Part shown: in pieces, positions 5,447 through 20,000 of the stretch | Layout: every line of letters begins with the position of its first letter | Numbering within the stretch: position 1 is the first letter of the stretch | Assembly (NCBI RefSeq): GCF_041146345.1 | Contig: NW_027191413.1 | Span: 3,020,971-3,040,970 of the forward strand | Reading direction: 5' to 3' | Length of the DNA: 20,000 bases | From: Neodothiora populina | Taxonomy: Eukaryota | Program-made: the position numbers and the translations under genes | Notes under the pieces: generated by a model | Database searches by the model: none | What the model was told of the DNA's origin: nothing | The model's input: only the letters and a program-made list of their open reading frames with translations

Positions 5447-7082
5447 ATGTCTGGTATCAAGACGTCTATGACCGAGGCAAGGGTCGAGTTCTCTGAGAAC
5501 TCACAAGACAATATGCACAGGACACCTGCGCTACCAATTGGAGCAGAACGCGTAGATTTGACAGAGCAGGAGGCGAGTTGGCATCTTTCCAATGTCCAAT
5601 AGAGAGCCACTCTTATATGCAGCGTAGAATTGCCGCCTTCGTCGTAAGACTGACAAAGTCATCCTGTCCCTTCTCGTCTGGGGATACTTCTTGCAGATCA
5701 TAGATAAGACTGCTCTAGGATACGGAGCTCTCTTCGGACTTCGAACTGACCTCAAGCTTGTCGGCAAGCACTATTCGCTCGCGTCCAGTGCCACGCCTAT
5801 CGCTCAACTAGCGTGGCAACCCATTTCGTCCTACCTTATCGTCAGAGCTCCACATCGGATCCTGCTGCCTCTACTCGTGCTTTTCTGGGGTATCACGATG
5901 GTTTGCATGGCAGCGTCATGGGATTTCGGTTCCTTGTTCGCTGGCAGGTTCATGTTGGGGCTTTTCGAAGGCAGCTGCCTTCCACTCTTCGCAATCCTGA
6001 CCGGTAGATGGTACCGCAGATCCGAACAGCCTCTCCGAGTCGCTTGCTGGTATGGCACAAACGGAGTTGCCACAATCGCTATTTCAGTCATTGCTTATGG
6101 CTTAGCAAAGATTTCCCATTCTGCGATCGCAACATGGAGGATCCTGTTCCTCACCATCGGCCTTCTCACCGTCCTATCGGCTCCCTTATTGTGGTGGTTC
6201 CTGCCTAATGACATCGACAGCGCTCGATTTCTCACCGAGCATGAGAAGCGACAGACATATGAACGTCTTCGTGCCAATCAGTCCGGCGCTGCCAAAACGA
6301 AGTACAAGATGGCACATCTCGTTGAAGTTATACTGGACCTAAAGACATATCCGGGGATTGGCATTGCCCTTTGCCTAAATTGCGGCGCTAGCGTAACTAA
6401 CACCTTCGGTCCACTGATCCTCAGCGGCCTAGGATTCGACAAGTATACAACCTCTCTGTTGAATAAGCCGTTCGGTGCGACGCAGATCCTCACCATTGCC
6501 ATCTCTTCGTTTGCTGCTCAGCGAGGCAAGAAAAAGGGAGGAGTCCTCTTAGCACTGGCTCTTCCAATCATTGCTGGTCTGGCGGCCTTGTATATGCTTC
6601 CTCGAGATCCCTCCCACACTGCCCCGCTTCTTGTCAGCTACTATCTATTGGGGTTCATCTTCGGCGGCAACCCCATCCTTGTCGCATGGATGGTGGGAAA
6701 CACTGGTGGTTTCACCAAAGGCTCTGTGATTATGGCGATATACAATGCTGCAGCCGGAGCAGGAAATATCATCGGCCCTCTCTTGTTCGCTACGCAGGAC
6801 GCTCCAGCCTACAAGCCGGGTCTGAAAAGTGTCCTCGCAATGTTCGCTACACTGGCGGCCCTTGTAATCCTCCAAATGGTGTACCTCGTCTTCTTGAACA
6901 AACTCCAGGAGAGGAAGCGCGTCAAGGATGGGAAGCCAGCCAAGCTCGCAGATCTCAGCATGGAGCGCAGATATATCGCTATGGCTGAGGTTGCCGATGC
7001 TGAGCAGGGACCACGCATTGGTGACAACGCTTTCAATGACCTGACGGACAGACAGAACGACGAATTCATCTATATCTATTGA
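5447..7082 (+). CDS. MFS transporter of the Dal5/allantoate permease (anion:cation symporter) family, 2 exons (5447-5572, 5628-7082), about 526 aa
   Basis: Family motifs RRKTDKVIL...YFLQIIDK, GRFMLGLFEG, WYRRSEQPLR, GNIIGP and C-terminal DLTDRQNDEFIYIY, with about 12 hydrophobic segments. The N-terminal exon joins in frame through intron 5573-5627 (GCGAGT...TAG). Confidence 0.9.
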
Positions 7083-7471
7083 TCGTAGGCAGAGACGGTT
7101 TTCGGTTGCACTTTATTAATAAATGTTTGGTAATGCAGAGGTCCAGCTGAAACGCCAACCATGATGCCCTTACTTGGACTCATGATTATCAATTCTGCGA
7201 TTCGCAAGAAATCATAAAGCTTAGAGCGGTCGGGTACCGGATCAACGTCCTCTATGCCACCAACATCGCCAATACGGTGATGACCCGCCAATCCAGCTGC
7301 AGCAAGGTAATATGGGGCCTTGCGCATATCCGGACATCCGTCTACAGAGACAGACACGTGCCGGAAACTCCTCTCTGATCCTTGCTGGACAGGATGGACA
7401 ACTTCCGACAAAGACGGAGGGTTCACCTCGATCTTACGAATAGTCAAGTCTCGTAGAAGTGGATTAGACAT
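7076..7471 (-). pseudogene. 3'-truncated DUF1907 / C11orf54 (PTD012)-like gene fragment
   Basis: PPSLSEV...VSVSVDGCPDMRKAPY...GLAGHHRIGDVGG...KLYDFLRIAE...GVSAGP matches my recollection of the C11orf54 N-terminus (PSLEEL...VSVVDCPDL...RIAEVGG...GAGAGP). Similarity stops near 7130 and the ORF ends overlapping the MFS stop codon. Confidence 0.7.
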
Positions 7472-8255: not shown

Positions 8256-8696
8256 TCAAAAGCGAAACAGACGTTCATCATCCATAAATCCTCTATCGCT
8301 GACGAGAACAAGCTTCGGCAAAGCATCATCAATTGTGTGCTCAATGCGTTCGGCAGGGAAGGCCGGGTCGATGGGGGCATAGGCTGCACCCGATTTCATT
8401 ACCGCCAATGCGGCTACAACCGTGTCGACGGAGCGTTCCAGAGCTACGGCAACCACATCTCCATGGCCAATTCCTTGCTCTTCGACCAGCACATGGGCGA
8501 GACGATTTGCGAGTGTGTTGAGCGTTTGATAGTCAAGTTCTATGTGACCAGAGATTACCGCAACATGTCTAGGGTACCGCTCTGCGGCGCTCTCAAAAAG
8601 CCGTGGCAACGAAAATCCAAGCGTTGCGGGGTTATCCGTGGCGTTGAACTGGCCAATAAGGGTTTGGTGGTCTCGCGCTGAAATAGTTCCTGCCAT
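8256..8696 (-). pseudogene. N-terminal fragment of an NRPS-type adenylation domain
   Basis: Has A1-like LDYQTLNTLANRLA and A2-like MKSGAAYAPIDPAFPAER. The ORF stops after about 146 aa, before the A3 motif (YTSGSTGxPKG), which I could not find in any downstream frame. Confidence 0.85.
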
Positions 8697-9278
8697 TTTA
8701 CACAGTAGATCTTGCTAACCTTGAAGTATTCGAAACTTCTTGCTATAGGTTGGTTGGTGTACATAGCACAGCAGCGGAAGACCGTACACTTGTATATCAT
8801 GAGTACACATATCGTATGACATGCATCGCGAATCCTAGGCCTCTTGGGAAACCATAGCACCTGCCGATTGAGGCAGACTGCCGCTTTAAGGACACGGCCG
8901 TTTTAGGTATGTCACCATTTGAAGTACCTTGCCTTTTCAAACATAGTGTTGTTGTCAACATCCTGCATTTAATATCGACAAAAGAATGATTCCACCATCG
9001 AAAGGTCCGAACACGCTTGCAGAGATAAGGAAGGTCTCTTACGATGGTCCAGCTAGCATGTGGTGAGCAAAACTGGTTCGCTTCTCCATGATCAGCTACG
9101 CAACGAGTGACCCACGCCGTCAGCGGGACTACCTAGTGATGCCCTCGATAGGTGCCTATCTCAGTATATATGTGCATTCGTGCGCCTTACCTTCAGCGAA
9201 TTTTCATTGCAATATCGTTTGCCACATCAATTCTCTACTTTTCTTCGTTGACTTTCACTAAGCCTTAACTAATCTGTC

Positions 9279-10421: not shown

Positions 10422-10825
10422 GTAAGCGATACACATACTTTCTCGTGGCTCTCTACGTTGTTGGGAGGACGGTTAGTTCATAATCCAGAGACAATCAATG
10501 TTATGGCAACATTCTGCTTTAATTAGCGCCACCTCTGCAAGTGCCAATCATATGATGTACCCCTAACTGTGCCTTACTCGTTACAGGTCGTATATCCTGA
10601 GAGATGCTCCATGACCAGGTTTGTTTCTTATGCCACAATCTGGCGAGACTTCTGGGAAGCTACGTCACAACACGAAAGCTGCATAGATGTACGTGCTTGT
10701 GCCGCTTGCTTGCGTCTCATGTCTGACATGCAATTGGAAGCTCAATGCGCGTTTTGACGCAGTACTTCTACGTATGTAGTTCTCTGCAACCTGGGACTGG
10801 AGAGCTGAGCTCTACGCGATTCTGC

Positions 10826-10897
10826 TGTTATCAGGCGATAGATATGTTGTCAGGCGATACATCTGCTATTCGGCGATACTTTTGTTATCAGGCAATA
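10826..10897. repeat. Degenerate 19-bp-period tandem repeat x4, core TGTTATCAGGCGATA
   Basis: Copies start at 10826 (tgttatcaggcgata), 10845 (tgttgtcaggcgata), 10864 (tgctattcggcgata) and 10883 (tgttatcaggcaata), each exactly 19 bp apart. Confidence 0.85.
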
Positions 10898-11609
10898 TCT
10901 TTGATGTAAATATCGCTGCAAGTACGACTTACCCTGCGTGAGTAAATGAAGTGTTGAGCAAGTGGATACATTTTTATAGTCCACCACTGCGGGGCGACTC
11001 CACATCCGAACACACGAGGTAGCCGAGGTTCAATGTCGAGACGTCCCCGGCCTGGAGAACTTCATCTCAATCTTGATGAAGTTGTGTTCGAAGAGCTGGT
11101 TACTCGAATTTACAGTCAGTATAGTCTGCGGTGTTGCACACTATGGTTTCACAGGAACTCTCGGGTGTCTAAATGACATGGACAAACGGGTGTCAACTCT
11201 TGAGTCTCCACGGAGAAGACCGATCTCATGGTGCTCGAGACAGCTAGCTATTTGCAGCTCTGCAGATAGTCGATGAGTACTGTATGTTGCGCAACGAATT
11301 TGATCGTGTTGATTCATGGTACAGTATGACTCGAAGCTGATGTTAGTGCGGCTCTAGCGTAGGCACGGTGACCAAAAGTGGGGAACGACGGTTGAAACAA
11401 GAAGACAATGACGCTCAACACCAACAACGATAAAACCCCGTAGCCGCCTCCAGTATACCGCGCTGATAGACGCGGGGTTCACTAAAACACTCGGCCAAAT
11501 TGTTCTTTCCATCCTTCAAGGGGCACAATCTCAATCCGCGGCAAATTTGGATACATAGGACATTTGATACATTGGACAACTTACACACACCTAAACGGTT
11601 TATTGGGTA

Positions 11610-13439
11610 ATGCCTGAGATGCGTCTGTCCTGGCAGCCGGGATTTTCTCTGTCGAGGAAGCCCGCGAGAAGGCCAACACCATGCAGGGATAAAGGACAGC
11701 GTTACGAGTTCGTTGTAGAGCATCCCCGGAGAGCCCGTTGCGCAAGAAATTCCCCAGCCGTCACCAGCTCTACACAAATAGACTCTCCCTCTGACTCTTC
11801 GAGGGAGCAGTCTGTCACAGTAGACGCGCATAGAGCTTATCCTCAAAGTGAGGCTGTTGGAGGAAACACAACTTTTGTTGAACTTCTGCCTGACGACTCG
11901 AACGGCGAAGAATGGCTCGAGAGCGAAGAAATCTTAGATATAGAAACATTCGGCGGAGCGACCGAGCCTTACCTGGTCTCGTGCAATAGCGAAGACCAAT
12001 ATTCATCTTCGTGCTCACCCGAGCTCACGACTGGCGGGCGCAATGATGCTGATCCAGAACCAGATGCCCCCACGGTCTCGACTTTAACTGACACATCCTC
12101 TTCTATCGAGGCTATACCAACGACTATATCCTACATTGACCTTATGCAACGGTTCAAGCCGATACTTAAAAGATGTATGCATTATGTATATGTATTCATA
12201 CCTCCCACTCCTGACTTCTAGTTGTTAGACAACGAGGAATTTTGCATGATTCCACTAACGTTCCATCTACGAATAAATCCGTTCCGATACCGTACAGACC
12301 TCGATCCAGAGCCGAGCTTTCTCGTCCACGCTGTGATGGCTCTCGCGGGTCATCACGTGACTAGTACCTCAACCTTGACTCATCGCCATACGGCACTTCA
12401 TCTGCTTCGCCAGAGGCTCAACGCGTTAGTCGATGCGGAAGATGTGTACTCTATGCTGGATACGATCGTCATTATATTTTCATTAGATGTTGGTCAGACC
12501 CGTGTGCCTCAAACTGGGTTTAAACTGACGGTGAATCTAAGGAGACTCAGTCTATTCTCGGCAACTGGAGTACACATCTTGAGGGAGCATATAGCCTCCT
12601 TGAGGCTTGCGGTGGTATCACGATATTGCCCATGTCCTCTAGGTTTGAGGCTCAGATCGGAATACTTACTTGGTATGCGAAATTCACTTCTAGATATTCT
12701 CTGTAGCTAACATACTAGGTGGGATGCTATCACAAGTCTCCTCTCAAGAGAAGACTGCGTGTTCCCTTACGCCTACTTTGATGCCGTGCTATCTAATCAG
12801 CACAGACGAGAATGGGATTTTTTTGGACTCTGCGGGTGTCCAACAAGTCTTGTAAAAGTTGTAATGCAGGTAGCACGCCTCAGCGCAGAGAGCCAAAATT
12901 CGTCCTCGACGTCATTCGAAAACACTACTATTTCGGAGTTGGAGCAATCACTTGCGTCCTGGTGTCACATTCCTGCTCCAAAAGCTGCGCAAGACGAGGA
13001 GGCTATGCACCAGGATCAAGATGTTATGCATTGCTCCGAGGCATGGAGGAATGGGCTCATCCTTTACATGTATAGGGTTTTCCGCTGGAAACTTGGAAGT
13101 GCAGTCCCATCACATATCTTGTACCGGGCAAGGGTAATTATAGACCACGTGCGCTCGTGTCGCGACATACACATGATTTCTAGGCAGGCTTTGTTACCCC
13201 TTGTTTTTGCAAGCTGCGAGACGCAAGATCGATCGATGCAAAGGGAGGTCATAAAACTATGCTCTATCTGGGACGAGAGGACCAGATATCATATGTTCCG
13301 TGAAACAATACCTCTACTCAAAGAAGTATGGGCTGAGCAAGAGAGGAATGGTTTTGAAAATGTGTGGTGGGGCCAGGTCGTAGACAAGCAACACACGTCA
13401 AGGGCTCATCCTCTAAAGATGCGACTTTGCTTTGGCTGA
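11610..13439 (+). CDS. Fungal-specific transcription factor (Fungal_trans_2-like domain), 4 exons (11610-12174, 12229-12488, 12542-12672, 12719-13439), about 558 aa
   Basis: Introns 12175-12228 (GTATGC..TAG), 12489-12541 (GTTGGT..CTGAC..AAG) and 12673-12718 (GTATGC..GCTAAC..TAG) give a continuous protein. It has HAVMALAGHH, NWSTHLEGA, WWDAITSLL, LCGCPTSL, SEAWRNGLILY and LLPLVFASCE, typical of this family. The start codon is uncertain and no Zn2Cys6 motif is visible. Confidence 0.8.
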
Positions 13440-14042
13440 TTTAGTAGTATTATCTAGTGATCGCGGTTGATTCTCATGCGAGTATGAGATGAGCACGTTT
13501 ATATATCTGCTCAGGTCTTGTGCTGATTTTACGATATTACGATTTAAACCAACATTCAAACTAGGCAAGCTTCGATAGAGCGGAACGATTGCAAGTTGCC
13601 TGCATTTTGCGCTTCTGGTCTATCTATATCTGTGCGTCTGCATGTATGAGTCTTCATGCCAATCTTGTAAAGAGGCTTGATTGGGTTGTCAAGTTTATAT
13701 GCATCGCATGTATGCTGAAATATACAGAGAGCACGGTGTAGGGCGGTCTGCGGCATCGGTCTCGATAGGAGCACAAGACTAATGGTAGGGGAGAGGTAAT
13801 GGAATGGGTAGATCTCTGTAGGGTTGCTGAGAATTGCCGTTGAATAGTCGACGCGAATTTTGTTTGAACCCGGGCCACTTCTCAGCTGCATAACAGGGTT
13901 TGACGTATTAACTCGGCGAAGCTGGTTTGTCTAACGTGTAGCTACCCACTTTGCTAGAAAAGCTTCCAAGCATCTCGGATCTATCATCTCTCTGCATATA
14001 TATCTCCCCAAAACTCCATAGAAGGCCCGGATTCGTTGTCTT

Positions 14043-16000
14043 TTAGGGTCGCTGCATGTTTAGATCACAGAACTTCCTCATGCGCTCCCACATATCGATC
14101 AGATGTCTTCTTTCACTGATGAGGTGACCCTCTCGAGGATAAGTAACCATGTCGACAGGCACATTGTTGTGAACACACGCCCGATAAAATGCTATGGCCT
14201 GCTCTAGAGGCACACGCACATCATTCTCGCCATGAAGAATCAGGATGGGGGTCTTAACATGACGCATGTGCCACAACGCACTGGCATTGCGACCATCTAA
14301 ATTCCCAATCCGATCCTTCTCGGGGCTTGTCGAGTCTTCTCCGGTCTTCACGTCCCATGGAGCACCGCCCACCATTTCGGGCTGGGTAGACCCTTCGCGT
14401 GTGGTCATCTGTGGTTGGTCGCAAGGGGGGTTTCTATCTTACTTTGGAGTCACCCGCGAGGATTTTCGATTCAGAGGAGCCATATGTGGAGCAGGTATAT
14501 CAGAATGGACCTCTATGGCAATGGGGAGCGATATATATATGGCACAAGCCCTGCTAATACTGTAACGCAAGACGTCAATACAGTCCGTGTAATCGACAGT
14601 TCCACCTCCTCCAAGAGCGTAAGCCGCATGTTTTTCACCTCTGCTACTGCCGCCACGGTAGTTGGGACAGAGAACGGCATAACCCATTGAGACTAGAACC
14701 GGAACCTCGAGACAATGACAGACAGAGAAGCCTGTGGTTATTCGCCAGTATGGCCCTCCGTGCGGTATAAGAATTGTTGCGAGTGGCCCATCTTCAGGAT
14801 TGTATGTGGACGGAACATACATCATTCCGTCTAGATGATATCCATCTACTGCGCTAGTTGAGATTGACCAGGACTTGGATATTTCCAGGGCAGCGATCCT
14901 GGAATTGTGGGCGGACAACTTAACTATACCAGCAGGCTTTGAGACAGAAAAGACCTCCTCTGGATTCGACCCATCACCTTTGCTGATCGCAACGACAGCT
15001 TTATTTCGAGTCTTGAGGACGTCAAATGATACCATCTCACACTCATCGCCAAAGACCATTGTACGAGTGCTATTACTGATTGAGTAGGACTCGTCAGTTA
15101 GGTACCTTTGGACACGGTAAGATATGCAAGATTGATTCTTCCGCATTGTTATACAACAGTGCTCCTCGTTGCCATCCTTATGCTCTACATAGCAACTGCT
15201 CTTGACATCAAGTTCGTATAACGAAAGAGAAGTCAAGATATGATTTGGGACATGACCAGCAATGAAGTAAACACCACAGTCTCCCCATGCAATCTGGCTG
15301 ATTCGACCAGGGAATTCGATGATTTTTTTCGGCTCCAGTCCAGACTTGGATGTCAGCCAGATCTCTGCACCGTAGATGCATGGAGAGTTGCAACATAGCA
15401 AAGTTCTTGCGAATCAGAGCTCCAAGTGAAATCATGCACGTGTCTGTGGTCACTAACGATGGTGTCGACTTGCCTTGTGACAATATCGACAACCCTCAGG
15501 CGGTGGTATTCTTGGTCGTGGCCCCAGATGTTCGGATCGTCTTTCGCTTTCTCCTTTGCAACCTGCTCAATTGTCTTCTCATCCGCGCTTGTGTATGCGA
15601 TACTTGTGCCGGTACAGTCCCATCGAAATTGCACAATTTGCTTTTCAAATTCTACCGGTGTTATAGGGTATGCTTCTCCACCACTGACTGACAACAGATA
15701 CACGGCAGAACTTTGCCCTGGCCGTTGTCGGTCCGATTTGAACGCGACTGTTGTTCCCGACGGAGACCACTCGGGCTGTTCGTCATTGTATAGACCCAAA
15801 GTGAACTGGCGACTGCTTTTCTCTTCGCCGACTTTGGCAATCCAGATTGAGGAAGTGGCGTTTTCGCCCTCCTTACTGTAAGCTTGCAATGCATAGGCAA
15901 TCAGGTTCCCATCAGGAGAAATTGAAATATCACGAGGAACTTGAAGGTCGGCAAGAGCCACCAAGCTCAACTCTGGCCTGTTACTTGCATCACTCCTCAT
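14043..16000 (-). pseudogene. Peptidase family S9 (S9C, acylaminoacyl-/dipeptidyl-peptidase-like) disrupted by a frameshift at about 15390 and an internal inversion at 14379-14550
   Basis: Beta-propeller repeats (ISPDG, EWSPSG, FTWSSDS), HGGPY, PNYRGGSSRG, the catalytic Asp (HGENDVRVP) and the catalytic His (YPREGH) are on the minus strand. The catalytic Ser motif GWSQGG (14413-14430) is on the plus strand. Confidence 0.9.
14379..14550 (+). other. 172-bp inverted segment of the S9 peptidase CDS, containing the nucleophile motif GWSQGG
   Basis: The plus strand reads GWVDPSRVVICGWSQGGFLSYFGVTREDFRFRGAICGAGISEWTSMAMGSDIYMAQA. Flipping it gives ...YSISR-GWVDPS...IYMAQA-EMVGGAPW... in frame with no indel. 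Confidence 0.93.
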
Positions 16001-17043
16001 TGTTCTTGTTTCGAGTGCTGGTAGGCAAGTCTTTGAGAGAGGGAACCTCAGACAGTGAAAACTGCGAGGTCCAAGGGATTGTATGCATCTGGACTGCTTT
16101 GACCAATAGCGTCAATTGTCTCCGAACTCTTCCGTGCTATCAGTTGTACTATAACCTCATCTAATTTGACTGAGATAATTAGCAACCCCCCAACTACGCA
16201 CCCCTGCTAGGATTTGCTTCGCTTCAATGTTATCACGGTAACGTTATCTACGCGAGAGTCATCTACCTTATTTTCGATTCGGCATTGTGCTTGACTACCT
16301 CGCAAGAAACGGCACTATGGGCTCTCAATTCATAGCTACACATTTGGAATGAGTCCTCGCGGGATCGCGGTCAGATGCAGGCAACGAGTCCTTGGCGGGG
16401 ATTAGGTATAGGCTTATGCGGCTCTGGCATTGTGATTGACAGCCGCAGTTGGGACGCCGCAAAGCACAATGAACAATCTGGCTCTAGATGTGGAGGGGTC
16501 AGAGATGAGGACAACCGGATAAATAGCGCAGCAGCGCCTATGTACAGTAAGGCAACAGGAAACTAATATATTGATGAAGCATCAGTACTGGTGTACCTTT
16601 CTCTGGCATGGACAGCTTATCACTGATGAGATTTACTATCGTCACCGCAGTTGCCATACCTACCCCGCACTACCTTGACTCGCTGCTGTGACATTGTTCC
16701 ACCTTCATTACAGTGTCCATGGTATGACAGGAGAGGGAAACAAGGCTGCCATTTACAAAGTACGACTTTCTGCCAACAGGTTTGTACGGCTTCCATATTC
16801 CTTTACATCTCATCGTATGTTGGATGTCGCAAAGCTACTGATACCATTGACTTGTTGGCATCGCCGCAGTTTCATTGATCCTGCTTATCCGAGGCACTTT
16901 GCATACGACTCTGCAACATCTACGTGAGACTCATCAAGTTTATGAAGACTCTGCATGATGAGATCATATTCGGACGACACCGCTTTTCGTCCGCTCTGGA
17001 CTGATATCAACGAGGCGTTGCGCACGTTCCTGGAATCACCAGC

Positions 17044-19918
17044 ATGAGCAGCAATCTAGAACGTGTAGCGCCCTCGTTCCTCCGAGATAGGCCTTATAAA
17101 GTTGTCCAGAGTCCTCCTGACTTAGCCTACTGGAGGGCGCGGATTGGTATGCTCGTGGAGAATGAGGTGGTGTTGCACAAAGATGAATTTGACAGGTACT
17201 TCCCCTACCTCAGCAATATCTGGTGGTATGTAAGGACAGGGTGGACATTTACACGAGGGGAGGACACCCCGGATAAAGAGACAACCTGGTATGACTGCAG
17301 GCTGCCTCTAGCGATGCGAAAACTCGAGGGAGAATTGTGTGACTACCATATGGAAGTGAACGAAGATCTGCGGACCGGTCGAATAGTTATAAAACGTACC
17401 GGGGACCAAAGTCTCCATACACACTCGCTAGCTGATGCTGACAAGATCGATATCGAATCGAACGATGGTCTAAGGAATCTGGTTCTATCAATGATCTGGT
17501 GTGGAACAGAGCCATGCGAGATTATGAAGATTTCCGCGAAGCAAATGTAACCGGAGAGAAGCTACTTGATGCTGGTGGTGAATATCTTACCGAAAAAATC
17601 ATCGATCGATGGTGTAGGACGTTCAGCAAATTATTTCCGAACATATGGCGTAACGGTAATAGAGCTGTATCGGATCATTTGGACACGATCAAGGCTGGCA
17701 AGGATGACTTTACAGGCTCATATGTCGAGGATACAAAACCGAGACGAGGAAGCGGGTTGAAGGATCCTGAGGGGGTACCATCGACAATTCAGCAAGCGGA
17801 ATTTCTTGTTCGGACAACCGGGGTGAAGGAGGGATACGATGTCTGTGAATCGTGTTTCGACTTCCTGACCAATCCGGCTAACACTTCTCGACTTACCGAG
17901 ATAAACACCATGGAGGGCCATCTAACCAAATGGGTCATATTGCGGATCGTTACTGAGAGCGCCAAGCAAGGTTGTCGTCTATGCCAGTTATTTCTAGTCA
18001 ATCGACCTGAAAGTCTTGGTTGTTATGGAAACGACAAGAATGAAGGTTACTACGTACGAGTACTGGCAACTAAGCAAAGGTATCTGAGACTGAGAGGAGA
18101 CAGTCTGGATTTTGACATATTCATAGTCAGTCATGCTCCTGATTTGCAAACAGTCGATAATCCATATTGGGCACCTGAGCAGAGAGACGCTTGTGTGTCT
18201 GCAAGATCTGGTACGTCTGTTGCACATTCTCAATTATATGACCAGTGGAATGATTCTTCTGTTCTAGGCGACGTAGCTGCTTCACATATCTCGTCAAGGC
18301 CGGTAGTTACCGACTCTTCGTCCGAGCGAGCTTTTTATCTCATGAACGATCAGATCAAAGACTGCCTCGAAAATCATGGCGAGCCCACAACATGCATCCA
18401 AACCAAATTGCCCTTTCGCGTGGTCGATGTCGACAACCCTCATCTCATAAAAGTTATCAATACTGAAGGGCAGACCGGGAGATATATAACTTTGAGCTAC
18501 TGCTGGGGAGCAAAAGAACAATCGATCATGCTGAAATCAAACACTATAGACGAACTCCAAAAGGCGTATCCGGTGAAAAAGCTTCCCAAAACCATCACTG
18601 ATGCGATATTGGTGACTCGAAAATTGGGCATCCGGTACCTCTGGGTGGATGTACTTTGTATCATTCAAGACGATGCGACAGACAAGAGCGAGCAGATTGC
18701 GTGCATCAAAGACATATTTGCAGGTGCATATGTTGCCATTTGCGCCGCCCGCGCCGAGTGTTACAGGGACGGTTTCTTAGGCCGCAGCACTGAAGGTCGA
18801 TTCACTGTGTCCAGGCGATACGATAAGTCGATTGCTTGTTCAACCCCAATTCCATGCAAATTTGTCGAGAGAGCCAATCTGGTCACGAGCATGGACATTA
18901 GAAGAACGGCTGTTGTCACCTAGGAGCTCGATCTTTGGTAAATCTGCATTATGTTGGGAATGCGACCATAAGCAATATATCATGCCAGACAGGATGATGG
19001 AAGAGAAGGGCATCCCGTTGAGGTTGGTCTGATCACCCGGACCACAGTTCATGGAGCCAACGCCGGTTTGTCAGACGAGGAGATGAAGACTAGACGACTT
19101 CTTTGGCCCAAGCTTGTTTCTGACTATACGTCCCGGGCTCTGACAAGTCCCAAAGATCGTCTAAGAGCCATTTCAGGGTTGGCTGCGCCTTTTCAGTCGA
19201 TCTACCAGCATTGTGAATACGTTGCGGGTCTCTGGCATGGCCCAGGGCTAGGTGGCAAGAGCTATATGCTTTCGCAACTGCTGTGGAGTGAACATGGGCG
19301 TACGAAACTTGGTGTGCACCTTCCTGTGGACGATTCTGCGCCAAGTTGGTCATGGGCATCAATCGAAACAAGCATCACATGGGGTATTTGGCAAATGAGC
19401 GATGCTATGCCTCCCGAACCGGAAGAGGACGATCCAGCAGATGTGATTGTTTGTGACATACTTAAAGTCACCAACAATGAGTACGGGGAAGTGAAAAACG
19501 AAGCGTGACACTGCAAGGTCCAACGAGATCAGCGCTTACCTATGTGCAGATGCAGCGTGACGCGCCATCACGCTGTATTCTTCATTTTGTGGAGAGTACC
19601 CACGGTGCCGAGTATGTGCATACCAGCATTGATTTGGGGTTATGTAATCTTGTTGTGGATGGGTTCACTCCGGGCTGGTTCAAAGAGGACAATATATTCC
19701 ATGGTGGCGTGCACTGCCTCACTGGGATCAAATTTGAGGTGAAGTTTCTCTTGTTGAGAAAGCGCGGAGGACTCATACTTGTCGAAGTCGATAAGCAACA
19801 GACTTACAGGCGGATAGGCATCTTTGCTTTTTTTGATCTGCAAGCTGGGAAGTCTCCGAAAGGTTGCGATACTGATGACTTGGCGACCAGGCATGCCTTC
19901 TTTGAAGACAATATCGAA
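17044..19918 (+). pseudogene. HET-domain (heterokaryon incompatibility, TOL-like) gene with an N-terminal WRKY/GCM1-like Zn domain, four frameshifts, and a 3' end truncated by the telomere
   Basis: The HET core at about 18408-18782 has LPFRVVDV, YITLSYCWG, LPKTITDAI, RYLWVDVLCIIQDD and DGFLG. It is followed by SRAWTLEERLLSPR, DYTSRALT..DRLRAISGLA, YVAGLW, APSWSWAS and GLILV...YRRIG in successive frames. Shifts fall at about 17532, 18803, 18972-19030 and 19500. Confidence 0.85.
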
Positions 19919-20000
19919 AGGGTTAGGGTTAGGGTTAGGGTTAGGGTTAGGGTTAGGGTTAGGGTTAGGGTTAGGGTTAGGGTTAGGGTTAGGGTTAGGG
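19919..20000 (+). repeat. Telomeric repeat (TTAGGG)n, right chromosome end
   Basis: AGGG at 19919-19922 is followed by 13 perfect TTAGGG copies (19923-20000) to the end of the window, with the G-rich strand running 5'->3' toward the end. Confidence 0.98.

Follow-up and report, generated by a model that had tools for sequence, protein, structure and literature searches.

In fungi, terminal truncation of chromosomes and de novo formation of telomeres are described for several systems. The de novo telomeres of Pyricularia were extended from seeds of 1 to 4 nt in 19 of 24 events, as given in PMC7367193, and PMC8381367 describes terminal truncations that are nested and accompanied by telomeres formed de novo. 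For the dothideomycete Zymoseptoria tritici, PMC6510446 reports broken chromosomes that received TTAGGG telomeres de novo. Genes with a HET domain are known to be located close to telomeres in other fungi; according to PMC10684091, 61% of those of Neurospora crassa reside in telomere-adjacent clusters. Products of the telomeric repeats themselves have been reported for mammalian TERRA in the form of Val-Arg and Gly-Leu dipeptide repeats (PMC9992779).

The window analyzed here is a stretch of 20,000 nucleotides from Neodothiora populina, which terminates in telomere repeats, with coding sequence of a HET gene reaching directly to the junction. As judged from its sequence, this end of a N. populina chromosome probably represents a healed terminal truncation of a HET gene that is now a frameshifted pseudogene. 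The best reading is a chromosome break of an ordinary kind that was healed, rather than a gene whose product carries a tail encoded by the telomere. The basis is a single sequence of one strain and one chromosome end.

The HET gene is divided into four frame pieces

The HET gene is composed of four frame pieces, which are split by three frameshifts. No continuous open reading frame leads from a start codon to a stop codon, and the terminal stop codon is missing. Piece 1 (17442..18923, + strand) has a length of 493 amino acids from stop to stop, a first in-frame ATG at about 17514, and contains YITLSYCWG and YLWVDVLCIIQDD. It matches PF06985 at residues 348 to 447 (about 18483 to 18782), which covers positions 1 to 97 of the 146 positions of the profile (E value of 2.6e-25). 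The score of 89.9 bits is above the Pfam gathering score of 22.5, which was used as the criterion for membership in the family. The rest of the HET domain with the W..QERLLSPR motif is located in the next frame, in piece 2 (18781..19032, + strand), which is shifted by +1 compared to piece 1 and includes EPIWSRAWTLEERLLSPR...CWEC, a motif that is conserved in HET domains. Piece 3 (18972..19508, + strand) is again in the frame of piece 1 and encodes the middle region, WPKLVSDYTSRALTSPKDRLRAISGLA...PSWSWASI, while the last piece, piece 4 (19481..19918, + strand), encodes the HET C terminus with 146 codons, a single ATG at 19550, and no stop codon.

A search within proteins of 271 to 863 amino acids revealed 669 homologs at an E value of ≤1e-3, the best one with 47% identity, and the best 120 of these 669 matches were used for all comparisons of homologs. 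In colinear tblastn alignments, piece 1 was matched by all 120 homologs, piece 2 by 54, piece 3 by 108, and piece 4, weakly, by 17; HSPs in piece 4 were absent at E ≤1e-3, and the weak colinear ones appeared only at E ≤10. Each piece was matched by homologs in a frame other than that of its neighbor.

Origin of the three frame changes

The first frameshift is positioned within 18780..18850 (+ strand), most likely near 18807, with homolog P0004 aligned up to 18806 and continuing in the next frame from 18808. Downstream of it, the first frame meets a TAG at 18921-18923. The second frameshift (18972..19029, + strand) is enclosed by a TAA at 18969-71, which closes the frame of piece 3 in the upstream direction, and a TGA at 19030-32, which ends piece 2. 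At the third one (19494..19502, + strand), one base is missing compared to the colinear homologs, with YGEVKN / SVTLQGP in the window versus FGNVKSGTLKISGP and similar sequences in the homologs; this interval contains an A5 run, and the resulting stop is the TGA at 19506-19508. Every shift is followed by a premature stop, at 18921 (TAG), 19030 (TGA), and 19506 (TGA), respectively.

The homologs aligned colinearly across all three frame breaks. P0004 proceeded from residue 190 to residue 202 across 18806/18808 at site 1, and P0021 from residue 284 to residue 292 across 18969/18978 at site 2, which leaves no room for an intron at either site, and at site 3, the alignments with P0003, P0005, and P0021 were colinear at every residue. 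An enumeration of GT/GC..AG intervals of 40 to 150 nt yielded 8, 13, and 19 formal intron candidates at sites 1 to 3, and introns as a cause of the frame changes were rejected, since all candidates have poor donors and would remove conserved residues aligned with homologs, and none contains a branch site suitably spaced from the acceptor. Going by these reading frames, the HET gene would now be a pseudogene that makes no HET protein. The presence of three indels argues that the truncation or the death of the gene was not a very recent event, unless these indels are assembly errors.

The pattern of the three indels speaks against this reading: with HET motifs well kept, no in-frame nonsense codons, all breaks at most 1.1 kb away from the end of the contig, and one of them at the A5 run, it also resembles that of long-read consensus errors.

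Four other genes are present in the window, which encode proteins with matches to Acyl_transf_3 (540 amino acids), MFS (484 amino acids), ADH (382 amino acids), and Fungal_trans_2 (242 amino acids). Each of these Pfam profiles is covered by a single open reading frame, amounting to about 4.9 kb without a frame break, which means that the frame breaks are local to the HET gene. The protein of a neighboring gene was 100% identical to a N. populina protein encoded on a contig of 3.04 Mb. The open reading frame at 17005-17547, upstream of the HET gene, had no Pfam match at E ≤0.1 and no usable Atlas match.

It is possible, albeit doubtful, that the truncation and its healing did take place, whereas the three frameshifts arose as consensus errors when long reads were assembled, which would leave an open gene without its last codons and its stop codon. 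All three breaks are indels and none of the pieces contains an in-frame nonsense codon, the conserved HET motifs are intact, and the breaks are located about 1,110, 890 to 950, and 420 nt from the junction, in a region where the quality of the consensus may drop toward the contig end. Site 3 overlaps the A5 run, and the chromosome-scale size of the contig (3,040,970 bp) suggests an assembly from long reads. These considerations have to be weighed against the 82 nt of telomere, which are free of errors, and against the other coding sequences in the window, which contain no frame break. At site 1, homopolymers do not exceed 2 nt, and the site is situated at a gap of 11 to 35 residues compared to the homologs, which resembles more a real deletion. 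No N. populina protein with this HET domain was among the 120 best matches, although the neighboring MFS protein of this species is in the database. An intact gene would still be expected to give little product because of non-stop decay and telomeric silencing, as general considerations and PMC2596135 and PMC5752202 suggest. Should the frameshifts be errors and the gene be transcribed, the result would be a non-stop RNA reading into UUAGGG repeats, as proposed in the original prediction.

The C-terminal coding sequence and the missing end of the gene

The original prediction also stated that the HET gene reading frame from 19502 enters the telomere with no stop codon and encodes (Arg-Val)n there. 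A stop-to-stop listing with open ends contained this frame as 19481..19999 (+ strand), which includes position 19502, comprises 173 amino acids, is open at the 3' end, and ends with ...FFEDNIERVRVRV...; the continuation into the repeats is thus confirmed. Its designation as the reading frame of the HET gene holds insofar as the frame is genuine HET C-terminal coding sequence, but it represents only the last of the four frame pieces. The chance of 146 stop-free codons in front of the junction is ~(61/64)^146, or roughly 0.001.

Piece 4 contains GLILVEVDKQQTYRRIGIFA at 19769-19828, followed by a tail of 30 codons that reaches the junction with FFEDNIE. A phmmer search with this 146-amino-acid piece gave no match at E ≤1e-3 among 1.84 billion representatives, and the pairwise matches of the C-terminal piece were weak, with a best E value of 0.029. 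Since the C terminus was too divergent when used alone, a profile was built from 51 C termini of HET-domain homologs and run on the 387 six-frame pieces of the window. Piece 4 was the sole match among them, at an E value of 2.3e-6; the match covered GLILVEVD-KQQTYRRIGIFA and showed the GL.L...[YF]xR[IV]G motif to be present in the window, while profile positions 29 to 51 remained unmatched. On the strength of this profile, piece 4 is regarded as real C-terminal coding sequence of the HET family.

The motif GL.L...YRRIG, which had been said to lie near the C terminus of these proteins, was present in 67 of the 120 homologs and was followed by a median of 27 residues, in agreement with that statement. 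Most of the motif-bearing homologs (55 of 67, with 12 exceptions) terminate with a hydrophobic h-x-h-h(x) sequence. This end motif was absent from the 30-residue tail in front of the junction in all three frames of the window. A MAFFT alignment placed FFEDNIE on the WFDE column of the homologs, 9 to 12 residues before the homologs end. The tail is nevertheless not short: 33 residues follow YRRIG in the window versus the median of 27 in the homologs, 18 of 67 of which have at least 33, and 20 to 31 codons follow the matched stretch compared to mostly 13 to 29 in the homologs. The claim of a loss of coding sequence is therefore based on the missing stop codon and the missing end motif and not on the length of the tail.

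With both the stop codon and the end motif of 55 of the 67 homologs missing, the best reading is a terminal truncation on which a telomere was added. A recent truncation healed at GAA-AGGG had been suggested before; a truncation agrees with these two features and with an array starting in the middle of a repeat, but a tail no shorter than that of the homologs counts against it. Breakage or telomere erosion may have caused a terminal deletion that reached into the 3' end of the HET gene. Such a deletion would have removed the last few codons encoding the terminal hydrophobic strand, the stop codon, the 3' untranslated region, and everything distal to it. Telomerase could then have synthesized TTAGGG repeats directly onto the new end, for which AGGG, or part of these 4 nt, may have been the primer. 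Three frameshifts, each followed by a premature stop, leave the gene in its four pieces.

Without any truncation, the telomere would be an old one and the stop codon and the C-terminal motif would have been lost by decay, or an internal copy of the gene would have been captured onto a failing end. This is improbable. The length of the tail and the decayed state of the gene would be in agreement with it, and Pyricularia captures internal sequences at failed telomeres, as described in PMC8381367. A gene, however, needs a stop codon, a 3' untranslated region, and a terminator, and none of them fits between 19918 and the array; moreover, neither a second copy of the gene nor a paralog closer than the best homolog was found, nor a repeat or junction scar upstream of the array.

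The telomere array and its junction

The 3' end of the window consists of AGGG and 13 perfect TTAGGG repeats (19919-20000), which on the + strand form a canonical (TTAGGG)n tandem array. AGGG (19919..19922, + strand) is an incomplete repeat unit in phase with the 13 repeats (19923..20000, + strand), which were visible in the sequence and in a search for tandem repeats, the latter reporting 13.7 copies at 100% match. All 12 of 12 overlapping telomere 12-mers were found, exclusively at the window end, compared to an expected number of 0.03. The gene side of the junction reads ...GAC AAT ATC GAA and is continued by AGG GTT AGG GTT....

That this array is an interstitial telomeric tract or a mis-join, with a gene that continues or once continued beyond it, is very unlikely: the last letter of the window falls inside the array and such tracts exist in fungi, but internal tracts with more than 4 repeats are extremely rare (both according to PMC8381367), all 13 of 13 repeats are perfect, the G-rich strand runs 5' to 3' toward the window end in the orientation of a true right-hand chromosome end, and the window contains no second telomere-like cluster or degenerate telomere tract upstream, other TTAGGG sequences being single units at 10561 and 14043.

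The array begins in the middle of a repeat, which is compatible with telomerase extending a seed of 0 to 4 nt. The AGGG may have been added by telomerase or may be an original seed of 1 to 4 nt; added and original bases look alike, so that the length of the seed would be between 0 and 4 nt. With AGGG being either of the two, the break point is between 19918/19919 and 19922/19923.

The telomere repeats directly adjoin unique sequence, and a subtelomeric element is absent from the window. The GC content is 0.46 to 0.50 across the last 3 kb, no tandem, direct, or inverted repeats besides the telomere were found in the window, and no helicase domain was present among the window's open reading frames that were scanned. 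For this window, the earlier statement that no repeat, helicase gene, or AT-rich buffer separates the gene from the telomere consequently holds. The RIP indices are normal, and no buffer mutated by RIP is present. RIP was considered as a cause of the decay and rejected, with a TpA/ApT index of 0.55, a (CpA+TpG)/(ApC+GpT) index of 1.35, and a GC content of 0.477 for 17442-19918.

Read-through into the repeats

Two of the three frames of TTAGGG are open and stops occur in only one of them. An open reading frame continuing into TTAGGG is thus expected two times in three, and reading through the repeats means little, contrary to the importance originally given to it. The (Arg-Val)n reading would be the passive result of an ancestral frame meeting a repeat with stops in one of three frames. 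The visible array of 82 nt would contribute at most about 27 residues if translated.

The original prediction of a transcript that could give a Val-Arg-tailed HET product conflicts with the upstream frameshifts and the stops at 18921, 19030, and 19506. Translation from the 5' part of the gene would end at the TAG at 18921, and for piece 4, the one ATG that it contains, at 19550, would be the sole start available. With this reading frame structure, no HET protein with a Val-Arg tail is to be expected, provided that the frameshifts did not arise during assembly. If they did, the HET promoter might drive a terminator-less transcript into the telomere, with an AUG-initiated open reading frame fused to (Arg-Val)n, which is a far-fetched assumption. 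If true, this would be a natural TERRA-like RNA driven by a gene promoter in N. populina and a genetically tractable route to the telomeric VR dipeptide protein, for which non-AUG translation in mammals is the only source proposed to date. The integrity of the upstream gene needs to be checked before a telomere-encoded peptide tail is proposed.

Comparison with known systems

As in mammalian TERRA, UUAGGG in the AGG-GUU frame would yield (Arg-Val)n (PMC9992779). A terminator-less gene pointing at a telomere would produce a TERRA-like RNA. In contrast to mammalian TERRA, for which a repeat-associated non-AUG translation is proposed, the frame in N. populina is severed from its start by three frameshifts. 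Similar to non-stop mRNAs, piece 4 contains no stop codon before the DNA ends, but different from them, translation from the 5' side would meet premature stops first, which would make such a transcript a substrate of the nonsense-mediated-decay type.

As with subtelomeric HET genes (PF06985), the gene next to the telomere here encodes a HET domain. This copy, however, is probably a frameshifted and 3'-truncated relic and not a working allorecognition gene, and the searched database contained neither an ortholog nor a paralog close to it, with 47% as the best identity. A HET-domain relic as the last gene fits HET genes living and dying in subtelomeres.

This end resembles the de novo telomeres of the fungi in PMC7367193, PMC8381367, and PMC6510446: TTAGGG repeats are attached straight to unique sequence, with a possible seed of 1 to 4 nt and without a subtelomeric element, and the breakpoints described there can fall into genes, as would be the case here. 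Different from the ends described in these reports, neither telomeric retrotransposons of the MoTeR type nor rDNA is present at this end. In those studies, as they describe them, the event was witnessed or strains were compared, while the event in N. populina is deduced from a truncated gene in a single sequence. The importance beyond annotation is small; if compared among several isolates, the junction could help to tell strains apart and to measure the rate of end erosion in this species. To the fungal chromosome ends known from Pyricularia and Z. tritici, the locus adds one more that probably arose by truncation followed by the addition of a telomere, in a dothideomycete that has received little study.

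Telomere array and junction

The window closed with 82 telomeric bases: a partial AGGG repeat at 19919-19922 (+), and then 13 TTAGGG units without a mismatch at 19923-20000 (+). Tandem Repeats Finder scored the array as 13.7 copies with a 100% match. All 12 overlapping telomeric 12-mer matches sat at the window end, compared to 0.03 expected from shuffles with one mismatch tolerated, and the only lone TTAGGG hexamers outside the array were at 10561 (−) and 14043 (+) within the window. The G-rich strand ran 5' to 3' toward the window end, as it does at the right-hand end of a chromosome.

The simplest account of this junction is a terminal deletion followed by telomerase addition. A deletion would have ended within the 3' end of the HET (heterokaryon incompatibility) gene, and telomerase would then have added TTAGGG repeats onto the exposed end. 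The break point is between 19918/19919 and 19922/19923, and AGGG may be the seed or already a telomerase product.

No buffer separated the HET gene from the telomere, as the original prediction had stated; GC, repeat, RIP, and helicase checks all agreed. The GC content was 0.46 to 0.50 across the last 3 kb, no further tandem, direct, or inverted repeats lay between gene and telomere, RIP indices were normal, and no helicase was found among the ORFs scanned in the window.

The HET gene and its frames

The Pfam HET domain PF06985 (E 2.6e-25) was located at residues 348 to 447 of a 493-codon stop-to-stop frame at 17442..18923 (+). With residues 200 to 493 of this first piece as query, E ≤ 1e-3, and homolog lengths of 271 to 863 aa only, 669 homologs were obtained, the named ones all being fungal HET-domain proteins. 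The closest was only 47% identical, and there was no near-identical homolog among these 669 matches. No protein of Neodothiora populina, the agent of an aspen canker, was among the best 120 of the 669, which suggests that the locus lacks an annotation as a protein of 271 to 863 aa.

When these 120 listed homologs were aligned back onto the window by tblastn, all of them matched the first piece. A piece in the +1 frame, 18781..19032 (+), bearing the conserved EPIWSRAWTLEERLLSPR...CWEC motif, was matched by 54. The original frame resumed at 18972..19508 (+) with WPKLVSDYTSRALTSPKDRLRAISGLA...PSWSWASI, matched by 108, and the third frame, 19481..19918 (+), gave weak colinear matches with 17, the best E values being 0.029 and 0.061 for homologs P0003 and P0005. 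The original prediction of one HET gene reading frame running without a stop into the telomere held for this last piece, but the gene itself was spread over several frames. When ORFs were listed from stop to stop with open ends allowed, 19481..19999 (+), to which position 19502 belongs, was open and read ...HAFFEDNIE and then RVRVRV.... Depending on the frame, TTAGGG encodes Leu-Gly, stop-Gly, or Arg-Val; since two of the three frames are open, the read-through carries little weight.

At the first frame change, near 18807, the alignment of homolog P0004 reached 18806 in one frame and resumed at 18808 in the next. At the second, within 18972-19029, residue 284 of homolog P0021 aligned at 18969 and its residue 292 at 18978. 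This continuity leaves no room for an intron at either site. At the third, ...NNEYGEVKN / SVTLQGP... was residue-for-residue colinear with FGNVKSGTLKISGP (P0003), FGNVESGILKILGP (P0005), and FGEVDSGSLVITGP (P0021), indicating the absence of a single base somewhere in 19494-19502, which includes an A5 run. Judged from these alignments, the three frame changes are frameshifts and not introns. Enumeration of GT/GC..AG intervals as introns restoring the frames yielded only candidates with poor donors, in which the acceptor had no usable branch site nearby and aligned residues would always be deleted.

Each shift was followed by a premature stop on the plus strand, TAG at 18921, TGA at 19030, and TGA at 19506, respectively, so that a ribosome coming from the 5' part of the gene would terminate at 18921. 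Only one ATG, at 19550, occurred in the last piece. A Val-Arg-tailed HET product, also proposed originally, would not be expected with these frameshifts and premature stops, which sever the frame from the gene start, unless the frameshifts are assembly errors.

Decay or assembly error

The frame breaks are fairly likely to represent real decay. Alternatively, they may be assembly errors: all three were indels, no in-frame nonsense codon occurred within the HET pieces, the HET motifs were well preserved, every break was no more than 1.1 kb from a contig end, and one overlapped the A5 run. However, the three breaks fell within about 0.7 kb, whereas none occurred in some 4.9 kb of coding sequence elsewhere in the window, the telomere array itself was free of errors, and the first site had no homopolymer longer than 2 nt and coincided with an 11- to 35-residue gap relative to the homologs. 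If the decay is real, three indels would mean that the HET gene died a mutationally appreciable time ago; "recent" could then describe the truncation at most, and not the death of the gene. A reading in which the frameshifts are artefacts and a TERRA-like, AUG-initiated transcript encoding (RV)n is driven by the HET promoter is very improbable. A gene adjoining a telomere is likely to be silenced (cf. PMC2596135, PMC5752202).

Extent of the probable C-terminal loss

Searched by itself against 1.84 billion representative proteins, the last piece had no match. When the C-termini of 51 homologs were combined into a profile, the profile matched only this piece among the 387 six-frame pieces of the window (E 2.3e-6), aligning GLILVEVD-KQQTYRRIGIFA to profile positions 8 to 28. 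The C-terminal motif named in the first reading was genuine: [YFWH]xR[IVLM]G occurred in the last 40% of 67 of the 120 listed homologs, followed by a median of 27 residues (10th to 90th percentile, 22.6 to 41). In the window, 33 residues followed YRRIG, and 18 of the 67 homologs had as many or more; past the matched stretch there were 20 to 31 codons versus mostly 13 to 29 in the homologs. By length alone, the tail is not short, which counts against a large loss. The chain closed with a hydrophobic strand of the form h-x-h-h(x), for example VTIV, in 55 of the 67 motif-bearing homologs; this pattern was absent from all three frames of the window's 30-residue tail before the junction. MAFFT aligned FFEDNIE to the WFDE column of the homologs, 9 to 12 residues before their ends. 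The stop codon and 3' UTR of the HET gene are missing, and some 5 to 12 codons are probably missing as well.

Remaining window

The remaining window was ordinary gene-dense fungal DNA. Pfam matches included Acyl_transf_3, a short-chain dehydrogenase, and a zinc-type alcohol dehydrogenase, the last followed by an intergenic imperfect tandem repeat (10816-10897, period 19/38, 75% match, about 2 to 4 copies). The MFS transporter ORF at 5628-7079 (+) was 100% identical over 484 residues to AAFC00_003360 (526 aa) of N. populina (Dothideales); the next-best matches (62 to 65%) were from Chaetothyriales black yeasts (Exophiala, Fonsecaea) and not Dothideomycetes, which is odd for a subtelomeric gene. 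With this match, the window is very probably the end of a chromosome-scale contig of N. populina. A DUF1907 match at 7079-7471 (−) covered positions 3 to 88 of 285, as part of a multi-exon gene or as another fragment. An isolated AMP-binding (adenylation) fragment at 8259-8714 (−), the first 100 of 384 positions, resembled the stump of an NRPS-like gene. The Fungal_trans_2 regulator gene at 11595-13439 (+) comprised three consecutive same-frame ORFs with single stops at 12219-12221 and 12708-12710, which would either lie in in-frame introns or be nonsense codons.

The S9 prolyl-oligopeptidase-type gene at 14043-16111 (−) was spread over three stop-separated ORFs, with an in-frame stop at 14439-14441. 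Peptidase_S9 positions 6 to 58 and 129 to 209 were matched, the gap between them being the expected place of the GxSxGG nucleophile motif, and GxSxG[GA] was absent from every minus-strand frame of 14000-16200. This gene may have decayed as well, or it may encode a pseudo-enzyme. Directly upstream of the HET frame and overlapping it, a 181-codon open frame at 17005-17550 (+) contained a Cys...Cys...His-x-His pattern (WYDCRLP...LCDYHMEV...SLHTHSL), which we take to be reminiscent of WRKY/FAR1-type zinc fingers. Pfam gave no match to it at E ≤ 0.1, and Atlas none that was usable; the frame may be a gene of its own, be a relic, or belong to the HET gene as a shifted N-terminal part.

Comparison with known systems

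The proposed Val-Arg-tailed product resembles the dipeptide proteins, VR and GL, that have been reported for TERRA in mammals (PMC9992779), but the (RV)n frame of N. populina is cut off from the start of the HET gene. HET-domain genes are described as concentrated near telomeres in Neurospora (PMC10684091). In Pyricularia oryzae, seeds of 1 to 4 nt were extended in 19 of 24 de novo telomeres, as stated in PMC7367193, and much telomere-adjacent polymorphism is attributed in PMC8381367 to nested terminal truncations and de novo telomere formation. The junction adds a further case to a type of event that is already known.
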